This document shows, piece by piece, positions 1,074-42,880 of a DNA stretch of 64,000 nt. The stretch lies in NCBI GenBank assembly GCA_044370175.1, contig JBILVZ010000002.1, positions 8,759 to 72,758 on the forward strand. Reading direction: 5' to 3'. The translations under genes were made by a program, and so were the position numbers. This DNA comes from Methylococcaceae bacterium (GTDB taxonomy: Bacteria; Patescibacteriota; Microgenomatia; UBA1400; PJMF01). The notes below the pieces were generated by a model. That model was given only the letters and a program-made list of their open reading frames with translations. It searched no databases and was not told where the DNA came from. Position 1 is the stretch's first letter. The number at the start of each line of letters is the position of its first letter.

Positions 1074-4000
1074 TTAAGAAATTGTAGCGTCTTTCTCATC
1101 TTTCATCCACTCGTAATACAACACTGGTATAAAAAGTAACATAATGGTGCTCGCAATCAGCACACCCGAGATAATTGCCCCACCCAACCCACGCCAGAGG
1201 GGATCCGAAATGGTAATGGGCAGCAGTCCAAAAACAGTCGAAAGTTTTGTCAGAATAATTGGCTCTAGTCTACTAGCACCTGCATCAGCAATTGAGTGTT
1301 CAAAACTCATACCCTCTTTTTTATTTAAGTTAATTTTATCAACAATAAACATAGAGTTGGTTACAACAATGCCAAACAGTGACAGAACACCAATGAGCGC
1401 TGGAAATGACAGGGGAGTTCCAAAAAGTGCAAATGACAAGAATACCGACGCTACTGCAAAAGGAATGACAATGATCACGATCGCTGCTTGTCTAAACGAA
1501 CCGAACTGTACCACCATGGTAATCATAATTAAGACAGCAGAAAGGAGCATTGCTTGCAGTATTGATTGAATTGATTTAGCATTTTCTTCATTTACACCAC
1601 CAGTTTCCCAGGTATATCCTGGCTTAAACTCAATAGACTCTACATACTCCAATAATTGTTTGTTTGCTTCTGGGATAGATTGCCCCGCTACCACTGCTCC
1701 ACTGATTGTCATACTACGTTTATAGTTGCGATGCGTAATAACGCTAGGATTTGGCTTTGTTTTTACCTCACCAAGGGCGACCAGTGGAATAGAACGCCCG
1801 TCGGGCGTAAAAACTTGCAGTTGCAGTAAACCTTCAGGAGAGCCTAATTCTGGTGTCATTCTAAAAATAATTGCTGTTTTATCGGTATCAGCAGCATCAA
1901 AAGCTATCTGATCGAGCGGCAAGCCTGAAGCATATAGTCTCAGTGCGTTAGCAACTGTATCTACACTGACCTGCAGTTCCGCCAACGTATTGTAGTCTGG
2001 CTTAAACTCAATTCCACTGGTACTTTCAGCTACAGAAGTTCTGACGTTAGTAATATTTGACTGAGACTGTAGGTATGTTTTAACCTGTGTTACATACTTT
2101 TCAAGCTCCAATAGATCCTCACCCAGGAGCGTAATCTGTACATCAGCACCTGCAGGTGGGCCACCAGAGACTTCGATCACAGAAATCTCCCCCACCGCGT
2201 ACGACTTAAATTCTGCACGTAGTGCTGTTGCAATATCGGTTGAAGTTCGTTCTCTTTTTTCTTTTTCAGAAAGTTTAACTGTAAAGAAAGCACTATTTGC
2301 GTTATTGGATAATGCTGAACTGCCAGAATCATTTGGTGCAGTGCGCCCAATCTCTGCAGTGACATACTCAGCTTCAGGAATTTGACGTAGTTGTTCAAGT
2401 ATTTCCGCCCCTGCAGTTGCTGTCTGGTCAATGGTTGCACCACTTGCGAGTTTCAGTTCAACATACACTTGATCCTCATTGGTTTTAGGAAAAAATTCAT
2501 TTTTTACAAACCCTAGTGGTAAGAGTGCAAAACAAAAAACAGCATAGACAACCATGGCAATAATTACTTTGCGTCTACTTGATTTGCGGGCGAGGACTCG
2601 TAAAATTAAGCGCTCATATTTTTCTGCTAGTGGCTCTATTGAAATGAGACCTCTATCATCACTGGTACGCAGAAAATCACGCACACCTTGCACCCACCTA
2701 GGTAGGTGCTTGTACATTTTTTGGCTGTTGGTCTGTACAATTTTTGTAGTTATCTTCCAAATAGTACCTCCACCTCGCAAAAGTAAAAAGCTGATAGCAA
2801 AGTAAATACCTATGATGGGTATAAAAAGAGGTGTATTAAAACTAAAAAATCCGATGACTGCTAAGGTCACGATAAATAAAACTATTTTTAAGAGTGTTAG
2901 CACTCGCTGTGGAATAACTGGCTTGAGTAGCACAATCATTAGTGGCAAAGTAATCAATACTGCAATTGCTGTTGAAGATATCATCGTTACCGTCACCACA
3001 ATTGGAATGGGTTTAATAAACTCTCCAATAATACCTGATGCTAAGAGTAGTGGCACAAATGCCCAAATTGTAGTCAGTGTTGTCGACCAGATAGGAATAA
3101 TCGTATCGCGCCATACTAAAATACCTGTTTCTGTAGGATTAAACTTGCCTGTTTTAAAGTACGTAGTCATAGCTGAAACTACTACAATTGTGTCATCAAC
3201 GAGTAGCCCCAGTGCAAGTAAAAATGCAAACAACGATAAGAAGTTAATTGTCATGCCAGTCAGTTGCATTAAAAAGAATGCTGATAAAAATGTCAGAGGT
3301 ACTGTTAGCGAAGAAATCAACGCTTGGCGGAAACCTAAGAACAAAAATAACACCGTCATGACAAGTACAATTGTGGTTGCAAACTCACCTAAAAGATCAG
3401 TAAACTGCTCCTGAATTTGTTCACTGGTGTTAACAATAGAGATAAGTGAAACTGTACCATTGCTCTGTTTGATAAATTCATCCACGACACTCGCTACTGC
3501 ATTGCCTGTGCTAGAGATATCTGCAGCGGTAGTTTTATAGACTGAAAATACGACAGAACGGGCGGCTGGCTTATCATGCGAAGCAATGAATGTGGTTTGC
3601 TGATTCACCACTGATTGCTCCTGAATCGTAGCAATTTCTGCTAGCGTTACCACCTGATTTCCTGCACTGATTTGCAAGTTTCGTATATCTGCCACTGACT
3701 CTACTCTGCGATCAATGCTAATCGTAAAAGTATTGGTATCTGACTGAACTGTACCAGCTGGAAAAGAGTTGCGTGCTGAACGCACTAACTGCGATAGCTG
3801 TAGGGGATTAATTTTATACTGTGCTACCTTTTGCGGATCGATATATACCACCACCTCTTGTGTCTCAATTCCAGTTGTTTCTACTCTATCGACTTGCGTA
3901 ATATCTTCAATTTTGTGCTTTAAATCATCAGCAGCCGCCATTAAATCGGGGATATCCCCAGTACTGATGAGTGCGAACTGCCAAACAGGGACGTTCTCGA

Positions 4001-10454: not shown

Positions 10455-11558
10455 TTAGAAATTTCGACCTAAAAACTCTTCTGTTCTTTGTTTAAGCTCA
10501 ATACTACCTTCTCCACTTTTAGCTGAAACAAATACAACACTCTTTCCACGGTACTTAGCTGCTAATTGGGCTTGCTGACTGGGTGACAGTAAATCAATCT
10601 TATTAAATACATAGAGACGGGTTTGACTGGCGTGCAGTTCTTGGAGTATATCTTCTACTACTGTTATTTTTTCAAACATTTTTGGATCTGAAACATCTAT
10701 TACATGGAGCACTAGCTGCGCTTCCATAGACTCAAGAAGCGTAGAGCGAAATGCTTCAATGAGAATAGGTGGCAGATCATCTATAAAACCAATAGTATCA
10801 GAAATAAGCACTGCAGGAATATAGTGTTGCAGTTTTATTTTCCCGACCACAGTATCAAGTGTTGTAAATAAGGATTGATGCGATTTTTTTTGCTTTCCAG
10901 TTAAGATGTTAAATAAGGTAGTTTTACCAGCACTAGTATACCCAACGAGCGCAACAGTTTTTACACCTCTCTTTTGTCGCTCATAAATTCTTTTGCGCTG
11001 TTCATCTGCTCGCTCTTTGATCTGTTTTTCTATTCGCTGTTGAATTTTCTTTATGTTACGGCGCTCAATCTCAATATTAGTTTCTCCTAAACCTCGAGTC
11101 CCAATACCACCTCCTTGACGTGAGAGTGCAGTTTTTCCTAAACCATAAATCCGCGGACCAGTGTGTTTAACACGAGCTAGTTGTATCTGCAACTTTGCTT
11201 CAACTGAACTAGCGTGTTGTTCAAAAATATTTAGTATTAGGTCTACTCTATCCCAAACAGCGATTCTCGTATTTACTGCCCAAAGTGCACGCTCCATTCT
11301 AAAAAGTTGCCCCGAATTAACGATTGCATTTATAACCACTACTTCAATTTTCTTTTCCTGTACAACGGATTGTAGCCACTCTAATTTTCCACTGCCAATA
11401 TAGGTATTTGGGTGGGGGTGCATTCGATGTTGTATAGATTTCTCTACCACAATCCCACCGTAGGTATCAATCAGTAGCTCCGCCTCAGCCATGTTAGCGA
11501 GCGCTGCATGATGATGATAGTGTGGACCAATAACCTGTAAGATTAGGAATCGCTGCAT
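10455..11558 (-). CDS. hflX: GTPase HflX
   Basis: HflX N-terminal domain followed by a G domain with a P-loop (VALVGYTSAGKTTLFNILT) and DTIGF (G3). The ~360-aa length matches HflX. Confidence 0.85.
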   Translation of the reverse strand: MQRFLILQVIGPHYHHHAALANMAEAELLIDTYGGIVVEKSIQHRMHPHPNTYIGSGKLEWLQSVVQEKKIEVVVINAIVNSGQLFRMERALWAVNTRIAVWDRVDLILNIFEQHASSVEAKLQIQLARVKHTGPRIYGLGKTALSRQGGGIGTRGLGETNIEIERRNIKKIQQRIEKQIKERADEQRKRIYERQKRGVKTVALVGYTSAGKTTLFNILTGKQKKSHQSLFTTLDTVVGKIKLQHYIPAVLISDTIGFIDDLPPILIEAFRSTLLESMEAQLVLHVIDVSDPKMFEKITVVEDILQELHASQTRLYVFNKIDLLSPSQQAQLAAKYRGKSVVFVSAKSGEGSIELKQRTEEFLGRNF

Positions 11559-31556: not shown

Positions 31557-32303
31557 GTGCTCATGAAATCACTTCTATATTCAGTAATTACGTTGCTAGC
31601 CTCAATCAAGCACAAATTTGACCTACCTGAGAAGACTGGTGATTTTTTTGTAAAAAATAAGCCCAGCTATATCTCTCAGTTCATTGGCATATACCCACAA
31701 TCAATAACACCGCACTCCATACTGGGTGACAAGAAACACATCGCTCAATTTGGTGCAAAAGATCAAAAGGAGTTTTCATTTTGGGCGTGGAGAAATTGTG
31801 GTATTGCTTGTGTGAAAATGATTCTAGATGTTCGTCAAAAGGCAAAAAACAAATCAATTATGGATTTAACCAAAGAAGGGATCAAGTTAGGTGGATATAT
31901 TGTATATGAAGATACAAAGTTTGTTGATAAAGGCTGGTTCCATCATTCATTGGTCGCTTTGCTTAAAAAATATCAGGTGTCTGCACGAGCTCGAAAATGG
32001 CAGACGATAGAGTCAGTTGCACGAGATATTCTCAATAATAAACTTGTTATTTTATCCGTATTGGTGCCTGGACGAAGACACATTGCAGAAGATGGCTCTT
32101 TCAAACTTAAGCCAGGTGGAAAGTTGAGAGGTCATTTGTTACTTGCAACGGGCGTTCGGATGCTGAAAAAACAAGTTGTTGGCATATTTGCTCATGATCC
32201 AAGAGGTCTAAAAGAATATCAGGAAGACACGTTTATCCCTGCTTCTGTTTTCAAGAAAATCTTTACCAATCGAACGATTATTGCAGACAACGATGTGGAC
32301 TAA
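31557..32303 (+). CDS. Papain-like (peptidase C39-like) domain protein
   Basis: WAWRNCGIACVKMILD resembles the catalytic Cys context (CG.AC) of C39 / Peptidase_C39_2 domains. A downstream His (RGHLLLATG) is a candidate catalytic partner. Confidence 0.4.
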   Translation: MLMKSLLYSVITLLASIKHKFDLPEKTGDFFVKNKPSYISQFIGIYPQSITPHSILGDKKHIAQFGAKDQKEFSFWAWRNCGIACVKMILDVRQKAKNKSIMDLTKEGIKLGGYIVYEDTKFVDKGWFHHSLVALLKKYQVSARARKWQTIESVARDILNNKLVILSVLVPGRRHIAEDGSFKLKPGGKLRGHLLLATGVRMLKKQVVGIFAHDPRGLKEYQEDTFIPASVFKKIFTNRTIIADNDVD

Positions 32304-32340
32304 CTTTTTCAAAGCGCTTAGGTTCAGCTCCAAAACATAG

Positions 32341-32410
32341 CTTGATCAAAGTGATATCGATATTTTTCCATATCAATGGTGTAGTCGCTTCCCACCTCAA
32401 CTCCTTCTGC
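32341..32410. repeat. Copy A of a ~70-bp imperfect direct repeat (partner at 39705..39773)
   Basis: CTTGATCAAAGTGATATC is identical in both copies; overall about 55/70 identical. On the minus strand copy A reads ...EGVEVGSDYTIDMEKYRYHFDQ, joined by a frameshift to an upstream 43-codon ORF that starts with ATG at 32523-32525. Confidence 0.5.
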
Positions 32411-32592
32411 TGCCAATAATGTTTTTTGGGTGCGGGTCACTAGTTAACGAACTGCTTTGTCTATCGCTCGCGTACTCACCCTCAGGTGGAACCAAATCTA
32501 TCCTAACATACTCTCCACTTTTCATAAACTTCAGAAACTAGGTTTTACTCACAAAATCTCAAAAGACGGCAGTATTTTTATTATCGTACCTC

Positions 32593-33123
32593 TTGGGCTT
32601 ACCCAGGAGAAAGGTTCCCATGATTGACCTACTTCTTTCTCTGCTCTGGCAGCTGAGGTATAAAACAAAGCCATCTGATCTGGTTGTCTCAGAACTGCAC
32701 AACGAAGCCACGTTTTATAAAAAGTTTCTTCAAGACCTAAAGACTGCCAAAACTGAGGTGATTATTGAAAGTCCATACATTACTACCCAGCGTATGAAGC
32801 AGCTCAAGCCTGCTTTTGTGCTGTTGGTCAAGAGAAAAATCAAAGTTTACCTGCTTACCAGAGACCCAGATAGCCACGATGAATGGATGCGAACACAAGC
32901 AGAACAAGGTATCAAACAATGCCAACTGCTTGGTATACAAGTGGTCTTAAATAGTCAGTTAAGCCACCGCAAGCTTGCTATAATTGACCGCCAGATTCTC
33001 TGGGAAGGCAGTCTCAACATTCTTTCTCAGTGCCAAAGCCAGGAGATCATGCGCAGAATTGACAGCCAGAGCCAGGCAACTGCCTGTTTTTCATTCATTG
33101 GACTGAGTAAATATGTCTATTAG
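32593..33123 (+). CDS. Single-HKD phospholipase D-family protein (Nuc-like nuclease/phosphodiesterase)
   Basis: HxK(x4)D motif in SHRKLAIID, followed by GS.N (WEGSLNI). 176 aa, consistent with single-HKD Nuc-type enzymes that dimerise. Confidence 0.7.
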   Translation: MGLPRRKVPMIDLLLSLLWQLRYKTKPSDLVVSELHNEATFYKKFLQDLKTAKTEVIIESPYITTQRMKQLKPAFVLLVKRKIKVYLLTRDPDSHDEWMRTQAEQGIKQCQLLGIQVVLNSQLSHRKLAIIDRQILWEGSLNILSQCQSQEIMRRIDSQSQATACFSFIGLSKYVY

Positions 33124-33156
33124 TTAAAACTTGTAATCAAAAGGTATAATACCGCT

Positions 33157-33372
33157 ATGCAACAAGACACTCCTTACCAAATCAATGAAAAAGATATAGA
33201 CCAAGTACTGGCATTCTTAAAAGATACCGATCCTGAAAATGCAACGCCAGAGAAAGCTATTGCACTGCTTGAAGACTTACAAGCTACCATTCACAACATG
33301 AATCACGAGAACCCAGAACAGCTCCAAGCCTTATATGATAGCTTGGCAAAAAATAAGAAAAAAGCTGAGTAA
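33157..33372 (+). CDS. Hypothetical small acidic protein (71 aa)
   Basis: Intact ORF 33 nt after the PLD-like gene; no motif recognised. Confidence 0.3.
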   Translation: MQQDTPYQINEKDIDQVLAFLKDTDPENATPEKAIALLEDLQATIHNMNHENPEQLQALYDSLAKNKKKAE

Positions 33373-33376
33373 ACCT

Positions 33377-33601
33377 TTAAAAGGTCAATACGTCTGAAGA
33401 CTTGATGCCGAGTGCTCCCAAAATCTTTTTGAGGGTTAAAATTGAAGAGATTGCTTCTCCCCGTTCCACTTTTGAGTAGTAGTTACTGTTAATCCCTGCC
33501 TTTTTAGCGAGTTGTGCTTGGGTGAGGTTATTATCAAGACGAGCCTGCTTGAGCTTGGCAATAATCTGTTGATTTGTTTTCTTCTCTTGAGCAGTAAGCA
33601 T
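33377..33601 (-). CDS. XRE-family helix-turn-helix transcriptional regulator
   Basis: LTQAQLAKKAGINSNYYSKVERGEA is the canonical HTH_3/XRE motif; 74 aa. Confidence 0.75.
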   Translation of the reverse strand: MLTAQEKKTNQQIIAKLKQARLDNNLTQAQLAKKAGINSNYYSKVERGEAISSILTLKKILGALGIKSSDVLTF

Positions 33602-33657
33602 ATAGTGTAGTATATCAGGTCATAAGTATCTATTCATTCATTTGAAGAAAGGAAAGT

Positions 33658-34119
33658 ATGACCAATCCAGTTTCAAAGCCTGAAAATCTTTATGCAGTAT
33701 TATTTATAACGAAGCGGATAAATAAAGATTCTGTTGTTACTTTGAATACACAAGAAACTATGTGCAAAAATGCTGCTATAAAAAGTGGGTATCAAGTTAT
33801 TAAGATATTTAGAGAAAAAACCAATTTTTCAATTAAAATCGCTGATAGACCTATCGTCACTGAACTACTTGAATACTGTAAAACACACAGGGGCAAGGTC
33901 AATGCAGTTTTTGTAAATACTCTGGACACTATTTCTGCTGATATTTACGAATATATATCAGTAAGAAAACAATTAAGTGCACATGAAGTATCAATTTTTT
34001 CAGCAACAGAGCCTATTACTAATTATTCTGAAAAAAAGCATGTGGAGACGATACTTTTTGCATTTGCAGAACTGGATAAGGCCGTGCGAACTGGAAAACT
34101 TCCTATCTCGACTGAGTAA
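33658..34119 (+). CDS. Serine-recombinase (resolvase) catalytic-domain-like protein, apparently inactive and lacking the DNA-binding HTH
   Basis: Collinear with Hin/resolvase. FSIKIADRPIVTELLEYC aligns with ISGKIANRPGLKRAL. VFVNTLDTISAD aligns with LVVWKLDRLGRS. IFSATEPI aligns with FHSLTDSIDT. The catalytic YxRVSTxxQ is replaced by LFITKRINK (R8 and S10 not conserved), and the LDRLgR arginines are absent. 153 aa, no C-terminal HTH. Confidence 0.45.
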   Translation: MTNPVSKPENLYAVLFITKRINKDSVVTLNTQETMCKNAAIKSGYQVIKIFREKTNFSIKIADRPIVTELLEYCKTHRGKVNAVFVNTLDTISADIYEYISVRKQLSAHEVSIFSATEPITNYSEKKHVETILFAFAELDKAVRTGKLPISTE

Positions 34120-34333
34120 CTTCTTGCAAAGTTTTTCCATCGAAAATGGATCGTTCGTACTCATCCAGCCAAGTACTAATGAGATAATCTATGCAGGTAA
34201 TTTGGTGCTTTATTTCTTCATCAGTCATTCCCTCAGCACACTTGCCAAGGATCTTACGTGTTTCTTGAATCTCATTTTCATCTTCAATAAATGGATTGTC
34301 AGTATGGTTAACTACCTTTGAATGTCGAAACAT
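34103..34333 (-). CDS. Hypothetical small protein (76 aa)
   Basis: Intact acidic ORF convergent with the resolvase-like gene (16-nt overlap); no motif. Confidence 0.3.
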   Translation of the reverse strand: MFRHSKVVNHTDNPFIEDENEIQETRKILGKCAEGMTDEEIKHQITCIDYLISTWLDEYERSIFDGKTLQEVTQSR

Positions 34334-34423
34334 ACCACCTTTCTTAAATATGATATTTAAAACATGGTTTTAATTTATACCCAGCATCAAATAAATTAAG
34401 CACTTAATATAACAAGTAAATAT

Positions 34424-34966
34424 TCAGTCTTGAAGTAGCTTTGAAATATCCTCCATTAAAAATATTAACTCTGTTGCTGTAATGAAATCAGGAGTAACTG
34501 GCTTTCCTTTTAGGCTTGTGTCAATTGTTTTATCTCTCCATGTTATTGGCTGATCTTTTTTAATAGTTTCTTCTGTAAAATTAAAAGTATTTCCATGAGC
34601 AGCACCATTTCTTAAATGTTTTGCGAATTTATATATTGGCATTGAATTAATCTTATTTTGATATTTAGAAGCTTGTAAAAAATCGAATAACAATATTGCC
34701 ATCATCCTACTTACATACGTCATAAATTTTTTGTTACTAGAAGTGTATGAGCCATCGCTACTTACTCTTAAATTAACTTCTTTGTTATACTCATTTATGC
34801 TTTTAGCAATAGCTGGGTGAATCCTTAAGAATGCAGTTTGAAAATTTGGATTTCCCACAAAGCCAATACTTAGAATGAAGAAGTCAAACATTTTTTTAAT
34901 TGGATCGAAAAGTGGATGAACTTGTATTTTATTGTAATCAACACTCATATTTATATACCCCATCAA
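34424..34966 (-). CDS. HEPN-like / abortive-infection (Abi)-like protein with R-x4-H motif
   Basis: KHLRNGAAHGN contains the R-x4-6-H HEPN catalytic signature in an otherwise helical 180-aa protein. It lies in a very AT-rich stretch next to the recombinase-like and XRE genes. Confidence 0.4.
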   Translation of the reverse strand: MMGYINMSVDYNKIQVHPLFDPIKKMFDFFILSIGFVGNPNFQTAFLRIHPAIAKSINEYNKEVNLRVSSDGSYTSSNKKFMTYVSRMMAILLFDFLQASKYQNKINSMPIYKFAKHLRNGAAHGNTFNFTEETIKKDQPITWRDKTIDTSLKGKPVTPDFITATELIFLMEDISKLLQD

Positions 34967-35067
34967 TATTTACTTTTCTATAATAATCGGCAGCTTTACT
35001 TACTAGTCTTGTATTATTCAGCTTGAATAGGTTTTATTATAAAAAAATTTGTATGTCTAGACATAGT

Positions 35068-35094
35068 AAAACAGCCACCCTTGTGAGGTGGCTG
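35068..35094 (-). terminator. Rho-independent terminator of the 1138-aa surface protein gene
   Basis: Minus-strand CAGCCACC-TCACAAG-GGTGGCTG followed by TTTT (top-strand AAAA at 35067-35070), ~100 nt after the stop at 35194. Confidence 0.6.
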
Positions 35095-35193
35095 TGGTCT
35101 ATAGCTATGTAACTAGTTTAGTACCGCTTAATATCTTAGAAATCAAGATATCAGCAATAATAAAGTTAATTACATAGCTTTCAAACGAAGAAA

Positions 35194-38100
35194 TTAACGC
35201 TGAACAAGTGGGAGGAACAACATATTTTGTGGTGGAGGCGGCGGATCAACTTGGCATTGTGTGGTCGATCCAGGAGAGCCATTGAGTTCACTCTGCCCAG
35301 CCTCATTGAAAGCGCTGACCGCAAAATGGTATTCAGTCTGACATACCAAATTGGCGACAGTGAAACTAGTAACGCCAACCCCAACACGAGCAATCTCTTG
35401 ATATCCTGCACCCATATGTTGCCAAACGATAAAACCAGATTCGTTATCACTGGAATCGTCCCAAAGCACTTGAATGGTTGTATCCGTGTGTCCAGCGGTC
35501 CGAACATTTCTCGTCCACTCAGGAATTGTAGGTTGTTGATGACAACTACGAACCAACCCTGTTACTGAACCGCTCTTGCCATTGAGGAAATCTTTTTCAT
35601 CCTCGGTGTTTAACAACTTTGCAACCACACGGTATGTGTGCTGGCTGCCTTCTGCCCGACCTTCATCGGTGAAACTGTATGACGATTTTCCAACGATACT
35701 AGCCACTTCAGCAATCACTTGCTCATCTCGTAGCACATAGAACTTTTCCTCAAAATTTGAGTAGTCATTCCATGTAATCGTCAGTGATGAACAAGTGGGC
35801 GAATCGATAGCAGTAATCACAGGAATCGCAATTCGCACACCCACGAAAGTCAGGCCAGTCTTCACTTCACCCACTTCGTTACGAGCAGACACTTGCAGAA
35901 TGTATAGCCCAGGTTCAACTCCAGTAACTAACCAGGAAGTTTGACTTTTCCAGCCAGAGCTATATGTTTTTTCACCCAGAAGATCTGCCTTATAATCATT
36001 GGCTCGCTCTGCTGCACGCCAGGCAATATAAATCTGAGCGTCCTCATCAAAAACATTCATTCCTGTCAGCTCAGGCTCTGGAAGAGCGGGCGCAAACGCT
36101 GTACAAGCAGATGTTTGCCCCATTACCCAGCCGACCTGACCAGATTCACCGAATGCATTGGTTGAACTAACCTTGTAGAACTGCTGTGTACCACATTGGA
36201 CTTGATCGGTGAAACTGCGATTGGGCGTGTTGTGTGAGAGGAAAACAAATTCATTCCCGTTCCACTTGTACACCCTGAAACCCACGGTATTTGGTGTGGC
36301 ATGATCCCAAGCCAATGAAATGGAGTCTTCGGTCACGCCGCTGACACGTAAGTTATAGGGCGAAAGTGGAGCACAAGTCGCATTGCCAAAGATCTCGATG
36401 GATGATGTGCGGTTGTTGAGTGAGCCAATGTTTGGAATGTCGCCACTCAAACATTCAGATCGCTCACCTTGAGCTTCATTGTGTTCGTAGAGAATGCCGC
36501 TTTTGCCCACAGGGAACCTTACAGATTGCGCTGTGTCGTTGAAGTAATCTTTTGAACCCAAATTTTCCATGTTGTATACACCCGGGTCAGCACCTGCTGA
36601 CCAAGTATAACTTTGAAAATTTGAGTCATTGTGAAAAACCACACTAGTACGCAGCGTGTTAGGACAATCACCTTGATTGAAAACTTCGATGTCGGTGACT
36701 TGAGCATACAAATCAGATGGCCAACCGCTGGGCAGCGGGTCGCGTGGGGCGTTGTAGCATTCTACGGTACCTCTTTTGCTGCCCTCTCGATAAATTGACA
36801 CAGACATCCCAGAAGGCACTTCAGTCAGCCGGGTCATGGTGTCATTCCAGCCTGGCCCAAAGGCAGGCATTGAATGATATCCAGTACCGAACTGCCAGCA
36901 CCCTGTTGGGCTGCACATCACAATCAAACCTGAACCACCAGTTCCGCAGTCATTGCGGTTGAATGTCTCGATTGATTGAATGGAGTTGTGCCAACCGTGG
37001 TCCTGTAAATTGGGTACCGATTGATCCCAGCATCGCTGCTCACCACCCTTATTATCTCCGCGCCATGTTCTTGCACTCCATCCACTAGGAAGCTGCAGTG
37101 CATAAGAATTGGCATTTGGTGAATTGGAAAAGCCAAGTCCTCCAGACCATTGCACACTTCCACCATAGTTTGCCTGTGCGTATAACTTGGCATACCCCGT
37201 TGAAGTGTCGTTTGATGGATTGCAGTTGAATGACTTGGTCTTAACTGGGTTAAGGTTATGTTGGCTCCAAACAAAGTTGTTGCCTACTTTATCCCAGATT
37301 TCCAAACCAAATTCAACTGAACCATCTGGCACATTCCAAGCACACATGTTCCAGCTATAGCTGTATGGGGCAGTGCTCACTGTGGCGAGATTACGCCAAG
37401 TTCCATTCCACTTTGCTGAGTAGCGGAGTTCTTTAATACCACTATCAGTGTCTTGAACACCAGATACTGCAAGATTTGCAACACCTTGATTGATGGCGAC
37501 AGAAAAGCCTGATGCCAATGGAGGCGCGCAATCTGCGCTAGACGCAAAAGCATTGGAACTTTGGACACCACCACATTGGAATGCACCAATGAAAACATTT
37601 GCCACATGGGTTTGGTTTGCCTTGACAGTGATAGCATCTTGATTGAGGCTATCCTGTGTTAAGTCATTAAAAAACCCAGTAACACTTGTGCCATCAATGT
37701 TATATGCAGTAGCGCGCACTTTTACTTTTAACTGTGCGGGGATATTTTGAATTTCAAAATATCCGTTGATGTCTGTCTTACCACGAGCAATGACATCCTC
37801 CCGCATCAATACCTCAATACTTGCTGCGCCTGACGGTTGTCCATCTCTGTAGACTCTCCCGCCGATACTTCCAAAGCCTTCTGTATTCCATGAAGTTTCT
37901 CCCGGAACCAGAATCTCCCAGGCTGGGATAATTGTCCAGTGATGTCTGTCAGCAATACAGAAAGGCGGAATTTGATCAAAACCACAAGGCACGAAATGGT
38001 AGCCAAGATCAGCTGTAAGCTTTGCATTATCCAGATCAACTTCACCTGGTAATAATGCAATTTCTGTATAATAGAGCTTATTTGCTTCCAGCTTTTTAGC

Positions 38101-38610
38101 ATTTGCTGTCCCAAAAGTCACTTCAAATTCATTGTCAACTTCTGGGAGTACTGCAGTGTCAATGTACCATTCGGGCAAGTTAGATTGAGCCCACTGTGCG
38201 ACTGGAATTCCAGCGACGGTTGCTGTATTTACCCATACGCCCGGAGGAAACTGAGCACCTGTAGTATTGAACGAAAAGCCGTGCTCATAGGTTACTGCAC
38301 TTGAAAAAAGTGAACCATATGCAGCTTGAATTGCGGCAATCCTGTCAGCCGTCCAAATCATTTCCTGACGGATAACTCGATTGCCCTCATAGTTGACATA
38401 GGTGATAACTTTTCCAGCAGCGGGACGAAAATCACCAACGACATCAGTATATGCTTCGCTTGAATCCTCCTTCGTTTGAATTTGAACAGTTGAAATACTC
38501 GTTGGACTAACCTGCGCGACAGCAACAAAACTTTGGCTGGTGAGCATCAAAATGATGAGCACCATGAGCAATTTTTGCTTTGCTTTCACAAAGCTCGGTG
38601 AATCGTTCAC
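35194..38610 (-). CDS. Very large secreted surface protein with fibronectin type III-like repeats, a carboxypeptidase-regulatory-like domain and Trp/Gly-rich beta modules
   Basis: Signal peptide (MLIILMLTSQSFVAVAQV). GGRVYRDGQPSGAASIEVLMREDVIARGKTDINGYFEIQNIPA matches the CarboxypepD_reg fold. Several ~90-aa segments have the FN3 W...Y...A.N..G pattern. Repeated YAQANYGGS / WRGDNKGGEQRCW modules. Strong AGGAGGA ribosome-binding site upstream. Confidence 0.7.
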   Translation of the reverse strand: MNDSPSFVKAKQKLLMVLIILMLTSQSFVAVAQVSPTSISTVQIQTKEDSSEAYTDVVGDFRPAAGKVITYVNYEGNRVIRQEMIWTADRIAAIQAAYGSLFSSAVTYEHGFSFNTTGAQFPPGVWVNTATVAGIPVAQWAQSNLPEWYIDTAVLPEVDNEFEVTFGTANAKKLEANKLYYTEIALLPGEVDLDNAKLTADLGYHFVPCGFDQIPPFCIADRHHWTIIPAWEILVPGETSWNTEGFGSIGGRVYRDGQPSGAASIEVLMREDVIARGKTDINGYFEIQNIPAQLKVKVRATAYNIDGTSVTGFFNDLTQDSLNQDAITVKANQTHVANVFIGAFQCGGVQSSNAFASSADCAPPLASGFSVAINQGVANLAVSGVQDTDSGIKELRYSAKWNGTWRNLATVSTAPYSYSWNMCAWNVPDGSVEFGLEIWDKVGNNFVWSQHNLNPVKTKSFNCNPSNDTSTGYAKLYAQANYGGSVQWSGGLGFSNSPNANSYALQLPSGWSARTWRGDNKGGEQRCWDQSVPNLQDHGWHNSIQSIETFNRNDCGTGGSGLIVMCSPTGCWQFGTGYHSMPAFGPGWNDTMTRLTEVPSGMSVSIYREGSKRGTVECYNAPRDPLPSGWPSDLYAQVTDIEVFNQGDCPNTLRTSVVFHNDSNFQSYTWSAGADPGVYNMENLGSKDYFNDTAQSVRFPVGKSGILYEHNEAQGERSECLSGDIPNIGSLNNRTSSIEIFGNATCAPLSPYNLRVSGVTEDSISLAWDHATPNTVGFRVYKWNGNEFVFLSHNTPNRSFTDQVQCGTQQFYKVSSTNAFGESGQVGWVMGQTSACTAFAPALPEPELTGMNVFDEDAQIYIAWRAAERANDYKADLLGEKTYSSGWKSQTSWLVTGVEPGLYILQVSARNEVGEVKTGLTFVGVRIAIPVITAIDSPTCSSLTITWNDYSNFEEKFYVLRDEQVIAEVASIVGKSSYSFTDEGRAEGSQHTYRVVAKLLNTEDEKDFLNGKSGSVTGLVRSCHQQPTIPEWTRNVRTAGHTDTTIQVLWDDSSDNESGFIVWQHMGAGYQEIARVGVGVTSFTVANLVCQTEYHFAVSAFNEAGQSELNGSPGSTTQCQVDPPPPPQNMLFLPLVQR

Positions 38611-38705
38611 TTAATCCTCCTGTGAACTTGAAACGGGATGGTAAAAAGGCCGATTAGAACCGTTTTTAACGGTACATACTCGGCGAAGTTAAGAGGTAAG
38701 TCTTT

Positions 38706-39392
38706 TTAATAACAATTAATGGGTTCAGAAAAACATGTGTCGCTAGCGGATTTTGTTACTTCTAAGCACACTTTTTCTGATGAATCGTTAGGCGTGTAGA
38801 TAACTTTCCATTTAAAGTCTTTTACAACCTCTTTTGCGTTATGCATTTTAAGAACTTTTGTTGAACATGATGATAGTGGTAGTTGTTGTCTTTCATGGGG
38901 ATAGAGTTTATAAGCGTTACGCAATAATGCACTTTGCTTATCATTGCTGTGGGCATACAACAAACTTACTGCTATGGCAAGAAATACCACTATAATGGTA
39001 GGGCGCATCTTAATTTCTGTTAAAGCAAGATTACTTTTCTTGGCAAATTTTCTAGACATTAGCCATGTAATTGCTAATAGTATTAAAAAAATTAACAGAG
39101 GGTTAATAATTGCCCCTATCATAGGTTTCATTACACCTTCTAAAGGTGCCTGAATGCACCTAAAAAAGTAAGGAAAACTAGGATCATAAATATAACTTTG
39201 ATATAACTTAAAACTTGGTAAGGGAAGATAGCCACAAACAATATCAATTTCATTATATGTATATGCTACATGAGTTCTTGTAAGTCCAGCATAAAACACA
39301 AAAATTGATCCTATTACTAACAGGAAGAATGAAAATAGCTTTTTTCCATAAGTACTCACGCTATTTTTCTCTAATTTTGTATTATGAATCAT
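38706..39392 (-). CDS. Hypothetical membrane protein (228 aa)
   Basis: 3-4 hydrophobic helices, AT-rich codon usage, no motif. Confidence 0.4.
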   Translation of the reverse strand: MIHNTKLEKNSVSTYGKKLFSFFLLVIGSIFVFYAGLTRTHVAYTYNEIDIVCGYLPLPSFKLYQSYIYDPSFPYFFRCIQAPLEGVMKPMIGAIINPLLIFLILLAITWLMSRKFAKKSNLALTEIKMRPTIIVVFLAIAVSLLYAHSNDKQSALLRNAYKLYPHERQQLPLSSCSTKVLKMHNAKEVVKDFKWKVIYTPNDSSEKVCLEVTKSASDTCFSEPINCY

Positions 39393-39704
39393 ACCAAATG
39401 ATTATATATTAAAAATAATATAATTACCTCCAAACTTCACCGAGTATGTAAACTCGAGTAAAATTATAATTTTCTTCGCTTGTTAAAGAGCATTGCCACA
39501 AAATTTGTAGCAATTCAGGTCTCAATAAAAACTCAAACTCCTCAGATTCTGTAAAAAGAAAATTGGAATCATCAGTCTAAATTAAGAACTTGATATTCTA
39601 TCACAATCCTATAACAATTTGCAGGAGTAGCTTTGCTTCATTGACTCAAGTGACTACCAAGGAAATTATGCGATACCACTATCAGATCTCTTACCGATAC
39701 TCTT

Positions 39705-39773
39705 CTTGATCAAAGTGATATCTGTACTTCTCAACATCAATAGTGAAATCACTTCAGACTTCAATTCCTTTGC
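39705..39773. repeat. Copy B of the ~70-bp imperfect direct repeat (partner at 32341..32410)
   Basis: Same orientation as copy A. On the minus strand it reads KGIEV(TGA)SDFTIDVEKYRYHFDQ, directly after the stop of the histidine phosphatase gene. No start codon, so it is a fragment. Confidence 0.5.
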
Positions 39774-39789
39774 TTATATTGCATTCATT

Positions 39790-40383
39790 TCAGCCCAAGT
39801 GTGCCGTGTAATGCAAATCATGTGAGGCAAAGCCAGGACCTACTTTTGTGATTCTTGTTACTGAGCACTCATCAATACGATAATCTTCACCTTCCGAAAA
39901 AGTATGTCTGAGAGGCAAAACAATCTGTTCGTCAAAAATACTTCTCAGAAAATCTGCTATTGTTCCACCATGCGTTATTAGAACAATATGGCTGTGTTGC
40001 TCGGTTTCAGATTCAAGCTCATCAAGCAATGCAATAACCTGGCTAGCCGTTTCTGCTGATGATCTTCCACTCACAGGTACATACGATCTATCATGAGTAG
40101 CTTTTGACCACTCAGCAAAAAACTCAGCTCTATCTCCCACAAATTCTTGAAAGTCCATCCGTTCACGGAGGCGTTCATCAGTGGTAATTGGTAGATTAAG
40201 ATGTTGTGCAATATGTCCAGCAGTTTGTTGGGTACGCAGATATGGACTGGCTATAATTTTGGTAATTGGAAACTGAGCAAGGTACTGTGCAGTTTTTTGT
40301 GCTTGAGTGACACCAGTTGTAGTTAGCCCAGGATTATTTTTAGTAGCTTCCTTTTCACCGTGACGAATAAGGTAGATGTGCAT
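39790..40383 (-). CDS. Histidine phosphatase family protein (phosphoglycerate mutase-like)
   Basis: N-terminal IYLIRHGEKE (RHG catalytic motif) and a downstream HGGT region; 197 aa. Confidence 0.8.
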   Translation of the reverse strand: MHIYLIRHGEKEATKNNPGLTTTGVTQAQKTAQYLAQFPITKIIASPYLRTQQTAGHIAQHLNLPITTDERLRERMDFQEFVGDRAEFFAEWSKATHDRSYVPVSGRSSAETASQVIALLDELESETEQHSHIVLITHGGTIADFLRSIFDEQIVLPLRHTFSEGEDYRIDECSVTRITKVGPGFASHDLHYTAHLG

Positions 40384-41745: not shown

Positions 41746-42773
41746 ATGAAAAAAATCCTCAGTGTCCGATTTGTGAAAGCAGTAGCTGGAAAAAAGGACG
41801 TCGTCGAGGAAAAATAAAATATCAATGCAGAACGTGTAGAAAATGGTTCCAGATCAACAGGTCTCGTGAGAGCGTACCTGCAAAAGCATTGCTGGTTCAG
41901 CACTTAAGTGGGATGTCATTTCGAACGTTGTCAGATATGCATGGCTGTGGCGTAGCCACAGCCTACAGAAGAGTTCAAAAGGGGTTGCAAGAATTACCAA
42001 CCTGCATTGATGTCACCAGATGGTACTGTCAAAAATTCCAGGGTATCCTGCTGGTGGATGGCAAGTATGTACGTGTCAAACGATATGATCGCAAAATACC
42101 TGTGTTGTATGGCGTTGACTACAGTACACATGACATACCGCACTACAGACTCTCGAGAGCTGAGAATTATTTAACCTGCAAGAAATTCTTTGAGTCCTTG
42201 AAGTTAACAAACTATGTTGTGCATGCAGTCGTGTGTGATGACAATCTCAATATTTATCAGGCAGCACAACACACATTTCCTGAGGTCGTTATCCAGCTCT
42301 GTCACCTGCATTTCTTGCGGAATATGAGAGCACTGCTTGATCTTGAAAACAGCTCAACACACCAGCTATTTTTTCAGCTACTGACCAAACTATTAATTGA
42401 AAAAAGATCAAAACAAGACTTTGAACAGCGAGCTTCCCGATTGGTTTCTCACTTTGCAACTGATCAGGTCTGTACCGGAATATTGCTTGAACTCGCCAAG
42501 AAACAATCACTCCTACAAGGCTATTTGCACTACAAAGGTATTCCGACAACCACAAACCTCATCGAGTCATTTAACTCACATCTTGAAGCAAGAATACGTC
42601 CTCTTAAAGGTTTTGAATCTTTCAAACATGCAGAACTTTGGCTCAATGCATACTTCCTACGGAGGAGAACGAGGAAATTCACTGATTGTTCAGGAAAATT
42701 TAAAAAATTAAACGGAAAAACTTCTCTCGAAATTGTCAAAAAACCACGGATTGATCTACCAACCTTTTTTTGA
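41746..42773 (+). CDS. IS1-family-like DDE transposase with N-terminal C2C2 zinc ribbon; frameshifted at an A7 run
   Basis: The C-terminal TNLIESFNSHLEARIRPLKGFESFKHAELWLNAYFLRRR parallels IS1 InsB [36 protein letters not shown]. Candidate catalytic D/D residues sit in LLVDGKYV and VVCDDNLNIYQ. The in-frame upstream segment NPQCPICESSSWKKGRRRGKIKYQCRTCRKWF is an InsA-like zinc finger with no start codon of its own. ATG 41746 is followed by A7 and reaches that frame only by a -1 shift. The longest ATG ORF in the DDE frame is 41889..42773. Confidence 0.6.
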
Positions 42774-42880
42774 AACCAAGGTGACCCTTTTGGAACGGTC
42801 TCGGCGCTCTTCATCTTATTTGTACTATAATATAGACATTTGAAATTTGCTACACACAATTAATAAGCACAAGCCCCAAG

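Follow-up and report, generated by a model that had tools for sequence, protein, structure and literature searches.

A degenerate direct repeat around a mosaic insert in a candidate phyla radiation genome probably represents two truncated alkyltransferase-like genes rather than attachment sites

Integrative elements and prophages that use large serine recombinases (LSRs), such as those of the phiC31, Bxb1, A118 and SPbeta types, have attachment (att) sites that share only a very short core. A survey of integrative elements describes the target as usually lying within a conserved gene whose function is preserved (PMC7192596). In tyrosine-integrase islands and prophages that target gene 3' ends, the attL and attR sites are gene 3' ends in the same orientation at the edges of DNA that relatives lack and that is atypical in composition. 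Same-orientation gene 3' ends, absence from relatives and atypical composition recur in a 64-kb stretch of contig JBILVZ010000002.1 (hereafter the window), from an uncultured Paceibacteria-like bacterium of the candidate phyla radiation (CPR), in which a degenerate direct repeat (copy A, 32341-32410; copy B, 39705-39773) brackets a segment of accessory DNA. A sequence-only reading had taken the two copies for attL and attR of a single site-specific integration into a gene 3' end, and our analysis does not support this. Unlike such an island, the segment encodes no integrase, neither copy joins a 5' part to complete a gene, the empty site of relatives contains no target gene, the copies are 79% identical with a coding type of divergence, the interior is a mosaic, and the breakpoint that comparison reveals lies outside the repeat. 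Judged by homology, copies A and B are nonfunctional 3' pseudogene stubs of genes of the alkyltransferase-like (ATL)/MGMT family. We consider it probable that they derive from two different ATL genes and mark the edges of a mosaic, lineage-specific insert, and are not att sites.

The repeat pair itself is as first described. Copies A (32341-32406) and B (39705-39770) match in the same orientation at 52 of 66 ungapped positions (79%), after which a 1-nt indel is followed by four further matches. Their common exact 18-mer, CTTGATCAAAGTGATATC, has no third site in the window when up to three mismatches are allowed (0.03 matches expected), and so the search for repeats at other loci returned the core at these two sites only. 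In the minus-strand frame (...GVEVGSDYTIDMEKYRYHFDQ in copy A and ...GIEV*SDFTIDVEKYRYHFDQ in copy B), 9 of the 13 changed codons differ synonymously, a count reached in any of the six frames by about 1 in 10,000 random-substitution trials (P ~1e-4); the proposal that the copies are diverged coding 3' ends therefore holds. The exact 18-nt run is unremarkable in itself: when 14 mismatches are placed randomly in 66 nt, an exact run of at least 18 nt is expected in 9% of cases (P 0.09), and the block encodes YRYHFDQ, a peptide that does not vary among the three ATL sequences described below.

The source gene of both copies was recognized through contig L016 (GCA_964648715.1), whose orthologue of the C39-like peptidase adjoining the segment is 76% identical to that of the window and which carries an intact ATL gene that we used as the reference. 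Its 114-aa product matches PF01035 (E 2.5e-24, 85 bits) and TIGR00589, and its best solved relatives are Atl1 (PDB 3gva) and vpAtl (2kif), the alignment with 2kif extending through the repeated C-terminal stretch (the LEAEGIEV...KY part of vpAtl). Active methyltransferases of the MGMT family carry a PCHRV cysteine motif, at the position of which the L016 protein has PWWRV; YbaZ of E. coli is likewise an ATL protein. In tblastn searches, residues 81-110 of the L016 protein match window positions 32431-32342 (83% over 30 aa, E 1.7e-12) and residues 88-111 match positions 39774-39703 (79% over 24 aa). Relic A (32324..32431, minus strand), which contains copy A, is composed of codons 81-110, a tail of its own (AMFWS) and a stop codon, whereas relic B (39691..39774, minus strand), which contains copy B, is composed of codons 88/89-111, an in-frame TGA, a different tail (EEYR) and a stop codon. 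At the nucleotide level, B is 87% and A 77% identical to the L016 gene, compared with 79% between A and B. Relic A is also present in the closest relative, L013, where it is identical save one base. The Joint Genome Institute (JGI) annotation lists relic A as a 38-aa hypothetical protein (P0001, 32327-32440, minus strand), although it is a fragment of a pseudogene.

The source gene, which encodes 114 aa, belongs to the PF01035 family as do Atl1 and vpAtl; what distinguishes the window from these proteins is that only the last 24-30 codons are left of a gene that, when intact, encodes a DNA-binding domain and an active-site loop, that B has an in-frame stop, and that the C terminus bears an extension, SDFTIDMEKYRYHFDQ. 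We saw this extension only in L016 and in relics A and B: an exhaustive HMMER search with the 39-aa stub recovered only the stub itself and one spurious match, and a metagenome scan with the ATL/stub alignment gave no match. By themselves the relics are too short to match the Pfam model for PF01035, and no 5' ATL fragment was found anywhere in the window. Given that the differences between A and B are mostly synonymous, they would have accumulated while each copy sat in a working gene, and divergence in working genes makes A and B relics of two ATL alleles or paralogues, not a duplication produced by integration.

The DNA between the copies is accessory, as the sequence-only reading had claimed. 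The C39-like protein of the window is 96% identical to that of L013, 81% to those of L014 and L015, and 76% to that of L016. The C39-like peptidase gene (31557..32303, plus strand; PF13529), for which the JGI start is at 31563 (246 aa), forms the left core flank, and a histidine phosphatase gene (39790..40383, minus strand; PF00300, E 2e-30), 87% identical to its orthologue in L014, forms the right. In L014 and L015 these genes are convergent with their stop codons about 2-3 nt apart, and the homology of the window to both contigs stops at 32296 and resumes at 39782, which leaves a lineage-specific stretch of about 7.5 kb (~32297-39781) that they lack. Mean GC content is near that of the surroundings (0.402 in the segment, 0.417 in the rest of the window), but sub-segments span 0.29 to 0.47, and nowhere else in the window is the tetranucleotide deviation as large (z up to 3.6), so that the compositional check also favors accessory status. 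An intact gene of about 70 codons had been expected at the uninterrupted site; with the flank genes of L014 and L015 practically abutting, there is none. No ATL gene or copy of the repeat lies between the flank genes in L014 and L015 or in L016, where a gap of 107 nt follows the C39-like gene, and a module containing genes for a PLD-like nuclease and an XRE-type regulator is the only DNA of the segment found in the 20.7-kb L016 locus. Relatives of the C39-like gene from a genome collection (L010-L012), like L036/L037, have no conserved synteny downstream. Copy B was correctly described as following the histidine phosphatase stop without a start codon; it begins 16 nt past that stop.

The segment has a single recombination joint that is sharply defined, the GCTC at 32466..32469. 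The flanks of L013 are 99-100% identical to the window at the nucleotide level, and the two sequences are identical up to 32469 and unrelated beyond it (L013 position 10905-10908). This divergence point is located inside the segment, approximately 56 nt rightward of copy A, and the sequence shared with L013 runs for 111 nt past the copy A core. The window thus equals L013 only to the left of the joint and resembles L016 and L026 only to the right of it, where about 83% nucleotide identity to the PLD-XRE module of L016, L026 and L027 begins at 32466. The break with L013 together with the rightward homology to the module in L016 and L026 identifies the GCTC as a real recombination breakpoint. 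To the right of the joint, L013 continues with unrelated DNA that carries genes for a Cupin_2 and a baeRF-family protein; these genes are ordinary chromosomal neighbors in two other CPR contigs (L028 and L029), the loci of which do not extend to a phosphatase gene. A reciprocal joint was not found among the available comparators. The 34 nt between relic A and the joint (32432..32465), a spacer common to the window and L013, may be further decayed ATL sequence.

From the joint rightward, positions 32466..32541 of the plus strand encode LAYSPSGGTKSILTYSPLFINFRN*, the last 24 codons and stop of an LSR gene. The encoded tail matches the C-terminal ends of the LSRs of L016 (546 aa) and L026 (518 aa). 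This remnant alters the interpretation of the short open reading frame (ORF) starting at 32525, of which copy A had been considered the frameshifted tail. The first 20 codons of this ORF, its 5' third, are antisense to the LSR tail, and the remainder crosses the 34-nt spacer and continues out of frame through relic A; the ORF and copy A are therefore not parts of one gene. A frameshift-corrected 65-aa product of the supposed small gene had no match in Pfam and in an index of 5.8 billion proteins retrieved only its own 38-aa gene call, and we rejected the construct as a fusion of two unrelated pieces.

Among the alternatives to two independent stubs, a decayed att pair survives best, and we regard it as unlikely. 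According to this model, a resident ATL gene lay between the phosphatase and C39-like genes, and its 3' end received, either by site-specific recombination or in the manner of Campbell, an element that brought a diverged ATL 3' end with it. B would then be attL and A attR, and ATL codons 1-87 and the integrase gene would later have been deleted. In its favor, direct repeats of a gene 3' end lie precisely where the DNA missing from relatives begins and ends; the 18-nt exact block amid diverged coding homology would look as if attP had carried a foreign 3' end; relic A is only 35 nt away from a recombinase remnant; and the survey cited above describes targets as usually lying in conserved genes whose function is preserved (PMC7192596). 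Because stubs of the same family occur in the same orientation at both edges, the model keeps a small probability. However, of the five features that define an island in a gene 3' end, four are absent here, and the fifth, an identity block that marks the crossover, may or may not be represented by the 18-nt run. Neither copy joins a 5' part, given that B follows the phosphatase stop and A follows the spacer and the LSR tail on the opposite strand, and the empty sites in L014 and L015 and in L016 have no ATL gene between the flanks. The presence/absence breakpoint relative to L013 is at 32466-32469, off the repeat. Full-length LSRs are present in L016 and L026, whereas the window keeps the last 24 codons, and these are oriented such that the missing gene body would lie where relic A and the C39-like gene are found. 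The remnant is, moreover, of the LSR type, the att sites of which have a very short common core, and the 18-nt run is unremarkable (P 0.09) and lies over invariant residues. The mosaic content also weighs against the model.

Surveys of mobility within the strain point in the same direction. All 18 contigs with the exact C39-like protein, from at least 10 samples, carry the segment, none of them being an excision or empty-site variant, and contigs identified by the exact C39-like, phosphatase or NUDIX proteins all have the same arrangement. The recombinase content of the segment consists of the 24-codon LSR tail and a 153-aa resolvase-domain ORF lacking the catalytic Ser; a comparison of eight island proteins with Pfam gave no match to a tyrosine integrase, and the segment is, as judged from its predicted proteins, without a working recombinase. 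Rfam and tRNA scans of the region gave no match, so an RNA gene was not the integration target. A metagenome scan with the phosphatase yielded distant relatives only, that collection seemingly being without this strain.

A second alternative focuses on the module to the right of the joint. The module comprises, in order, the LSR tail, a PLD-like nuclease gene, a 71-aa ORF, the XRE regulator gene and a 72-76-aa ORF, in total 1.9 kb, and in L016 and L026 it comes immediately after full-length LSR genes, the products of which have Resolvase, Recombinase and Zn-ribbon domains. If ATL genes were the preferred target of LSR-type elements with this module, A and B would stem from two successive insertions (tandem accretion) that were later eroded. 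Relic A does lie directly beside a module that elsewhere follows LSR genes, the precise joint at 32466-32469 is used by several partners, and the stubs begin at similar codons (81 and 88). These codons are nevertheless different, and the joint at A is another 34 nt upstream of codon 81, so there is no common cut site within ATL. In addition, B adjoins the core phosphatase gene instead of element DNA on its truncated side; in L016, 6.7 kb separate the LSR element from the ATL gene, with which it is not associated; and a 5' ATL fragment is missing from the 64 kb. We judge this scenario improbable, and less credible than decayed att sites. Finally, the notion of a chance match or a short dispersed repeat without coding history has only the short length of the copies in its favor and can practically be dismissed given the 0.03 core matches expected for a sequence with only two copies in the window, the synonymous bias (P ~1e-4), and the homology of both copies to the same region of an intact PF01035 gene.

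The end of the module at the joint is conserved in a manner that deserves attention apart from the origin of the repeat. Although identity between the LSRs of L016 and L026 is only 25%, their last ~26 residues and all DNA downstream are common to both; to our knowledge, two LSRs this divergent with the same tail and module have no textbook counterpart. The module end (GCTCGCGTAC..., from 32466 on) is reached within 2-4 nt by three unrelated left partners, namely an ATL stub (window) and two LSR genes (L016 and L026). Its first 76 nt (window 32466-32541; L016 4649-4724; L026 ~1393-1468, minus strand) are 92% identical among the three sequences, as opposed to 68-75% for the PLD and 71-aa genes, and form the most conserved stretch of the module apart from 23 nt after the XRE gene. 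When the module end was folded as RNA, neither strand gave a signal (z -0.5 and +0.6), and we found no structure or RNA family that would account for the conservation. We tentatively suggest, as a possibility rather than an expectation, that the left end of the PLD-XRE module may be an active site-specific recombination site in CPR bacteria. It could then be either an attB at which different LSR elements insert, their integrase ORFs continuing through the joint, or a fixed end at which a self-contained cassette docks. If true, this would provide a first handle on the docking of serine-recombinase elements in CPR genomes, a subject for which we found no open-access paper. We also considered an attP within the LSR gene that is split on integration, and rejected it on two grounds: the LSR of L016 is intact, together with its tail, in a chromosomal contig of 86 kb, and no LSR body is found at the far end of the segment in the window. 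The segment thus resembles LSR elements in that its left module follows full-length LSRs in L016 and L026 and retains their last 24 codons, and it differs from them in having no LSR body, recognizable att pair or excision variant.

Returning to the interpretation that we favor, in which A and B are stubs of two ATL genes, the segment is, by the homologies of its parts, a mosaic of at least three origins. The patchwork consists of the PLD-XRE module, a 492-nt insertion with a dead resolvase-like ORF, and a group composed of an AT-rich ORF, the GC-rich fn3 gene and the membrane-protein gene. We posit that this Paceibacteria-like CPR lineage has a plasticity hotspot between the C39-like and phosphatase genes, where DNA would have been gained, replaced and eroded in several steps that truncated ATL genes. 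ATL genes may be among the small accessory genes that populate such regions, and two of them, once truncated, would now serve as edge markers. Relic A and the joint would be older than the split of the window strain from L013; relic B, which is nearer the L016 type, could not be traced to a source. The segment would by now be fixed and immobile in the strain.

Several points weigh against this interpretation. The ATL assignment depends on a single intact relative, L016. The presence of ATL 3' stubs in the same orientation at both edges is a coincidence for which we have no explanation, and a history of ATL as an integration target or homology anchor could still underlie it. The alternative allele in L013 is incomplete, the contig stopping 1.2 kb past the left joint, and the right-hand joint is comparable with L014 and L015 alone. 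With these reservations, a region of genomic plasticity with gene remnants at its borders is the category that fits best and from which nothing essential differs: the flanks are conserved, the interior differs among the window, L013 and L014/L015, and the locus contains gene stubs and recombinase remnants. Such border remnants are a known kind of feature, found here in a poorly studied lineage. The case documents a hotspot of gain and loss in an uncultured CPR genome, and it carries a caution, in that a degenerate direct repeat with coding-type substitutions at the edges of accessory DNA mimics an att pair, although in this case two unrelated gene stubs explain it best; comparison with relatives shifted the real joint ~56 nt off the repeat.

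The module itself appears to move between CPR genomes. Its PLD-like nuclease gene (32620..33123, plus strand) encodes 167 aa, with a PF13091 match at E 6e-11 and 86% identity to the L016 counterpart, and PADLOC reports PLD-domain matches of the protein to MkoC, MkoB and DrmC. A 21-nt motif, GTACYTCYTGGKYTWACCCAG, is present at 32586-32606, exactly 13 nt upstream of the ATG of this gene, and also precedes the unrelated Cupin_2 gene of L013 at the same position (10980-11000; 17/21 identical); this could be a shared leader or a chance match. The 71-aa ORF (33157..33372, plus strand) recurs in L016, L026 and L027 and has no family match in Pfam, PADLOC, PHROGs or NCBIfam. The XRE-type helix-turn-helix regulator (33377..33601, minus strand; 74 aa; Pfam HTH_3, E 1e-14) is 100% identical in L016 (5559-5783), L026 (334-558) and L027 (2606-2830). 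The protein is thus fully conserved between genomes whose C39-like orthologues are 76% identical, and the DNA to the right of the module differs in all four cases; both observations suggest that the module was recently transferred horizontally among CPR bacteria. The right edge of the module is a 76-aa ORF (34103..34333, minus strand) homologous to 72-75-aa ORFs of L016, L026 and L027, and this end is diffuse, homology fading between 34286 and 34344. Scans of viral contigs with the PLD protein, a module 29-mer and the 1138-aa protein described below gave no match.

Between the XRE gene and the 76-aa ORF, the window carries a strain-specific insertion of 492 nt (33624..34115, plus strand) that is missing from the module copies of L016, L026 and L027. 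It contains the 153-aa ORF (33658-34119, plus strand), which matches the Pfam Resolvase domain (E 1e-12), has Thr18 at the position of the catalytic Ser and is without a helix-turn-helix or other DNA-binding domain. Several contigs of the strain (L041 to L043) end near this insertion.

In the remainder of the segment, the gene content proposed from sequence alone was recovered in part: Pfam supports the PLD, XRE, resolvase-domain and fn3 assignments, but the Abi/HEPN assignment is not established, as the 180-aa ORF concerned (34424..34966, minus strand; GC 0.29) has only a sub-threshold match to Csm6-HEPN (E 0.003; 17.9 bits versus a cut-off of 23.4) and nothing convincing in PADLOC, PHROGs or NCBIfam. 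The fn3-domain surface protein gene (35194..38610, minus strand; GC 0.465) encodes 1138 aa with partial homology to a large protein of the CPR contig L028 (52% over 97 aa). After this gene, at 35063-35094, an 8-bp hairpin is followed by a T run on the minus strand, and the 32-nt sequence is identical in L028 (18337-18368), the genomes being otherwise diverged; transcription of the fn3 gene probably terminates here. A 228-aa protein is encoded at 38706-39392 on the minus strand, within a unit (38673..39450) that is bracketed by 34-nt inverted repeats (38673-38706 and 39417-39450). The repeats are 82% complementary and have an 18-nt core unique to both sites. We rejected an insertion sequence as the explanation, given that the protein resembles a multi-pass membrane protein and has no transposase match; it matches no family in Pfam, PADLOC, PHROGs or NCBIfam. 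The inverted repeats may be what is left of a small mobile unit, or they may represent a promoter region that was duplicated. BLAST searches against phages and plasmids gave no match.

Beyond the right flank, a gene for a Mutator-family transposase marks an insertion sequence (IS) at 41889-42803. Contigs L001 and L002 equal the window up to 42803 and then continue with other genes (methyltransferase, TspO, sigma factor); L004 continues as the window does. Either the IS has mediated a rearrangement that distinguishes sub-populations, or the assembly was joined at an IS present in several copies. Among named sequences, the C39-like gene has its nearest relatives in metagenome-assembled genomes labeled Candidatus Paceibacterota/Pacebacteria and in other CPR groups. 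There are no tRNA genes in the 64-kb window, and the segment is surrounded by many small genes of stress or detoxification type (two NUDIX genes, YbjQ, DUF305, OmdA, GNAT and FUR).

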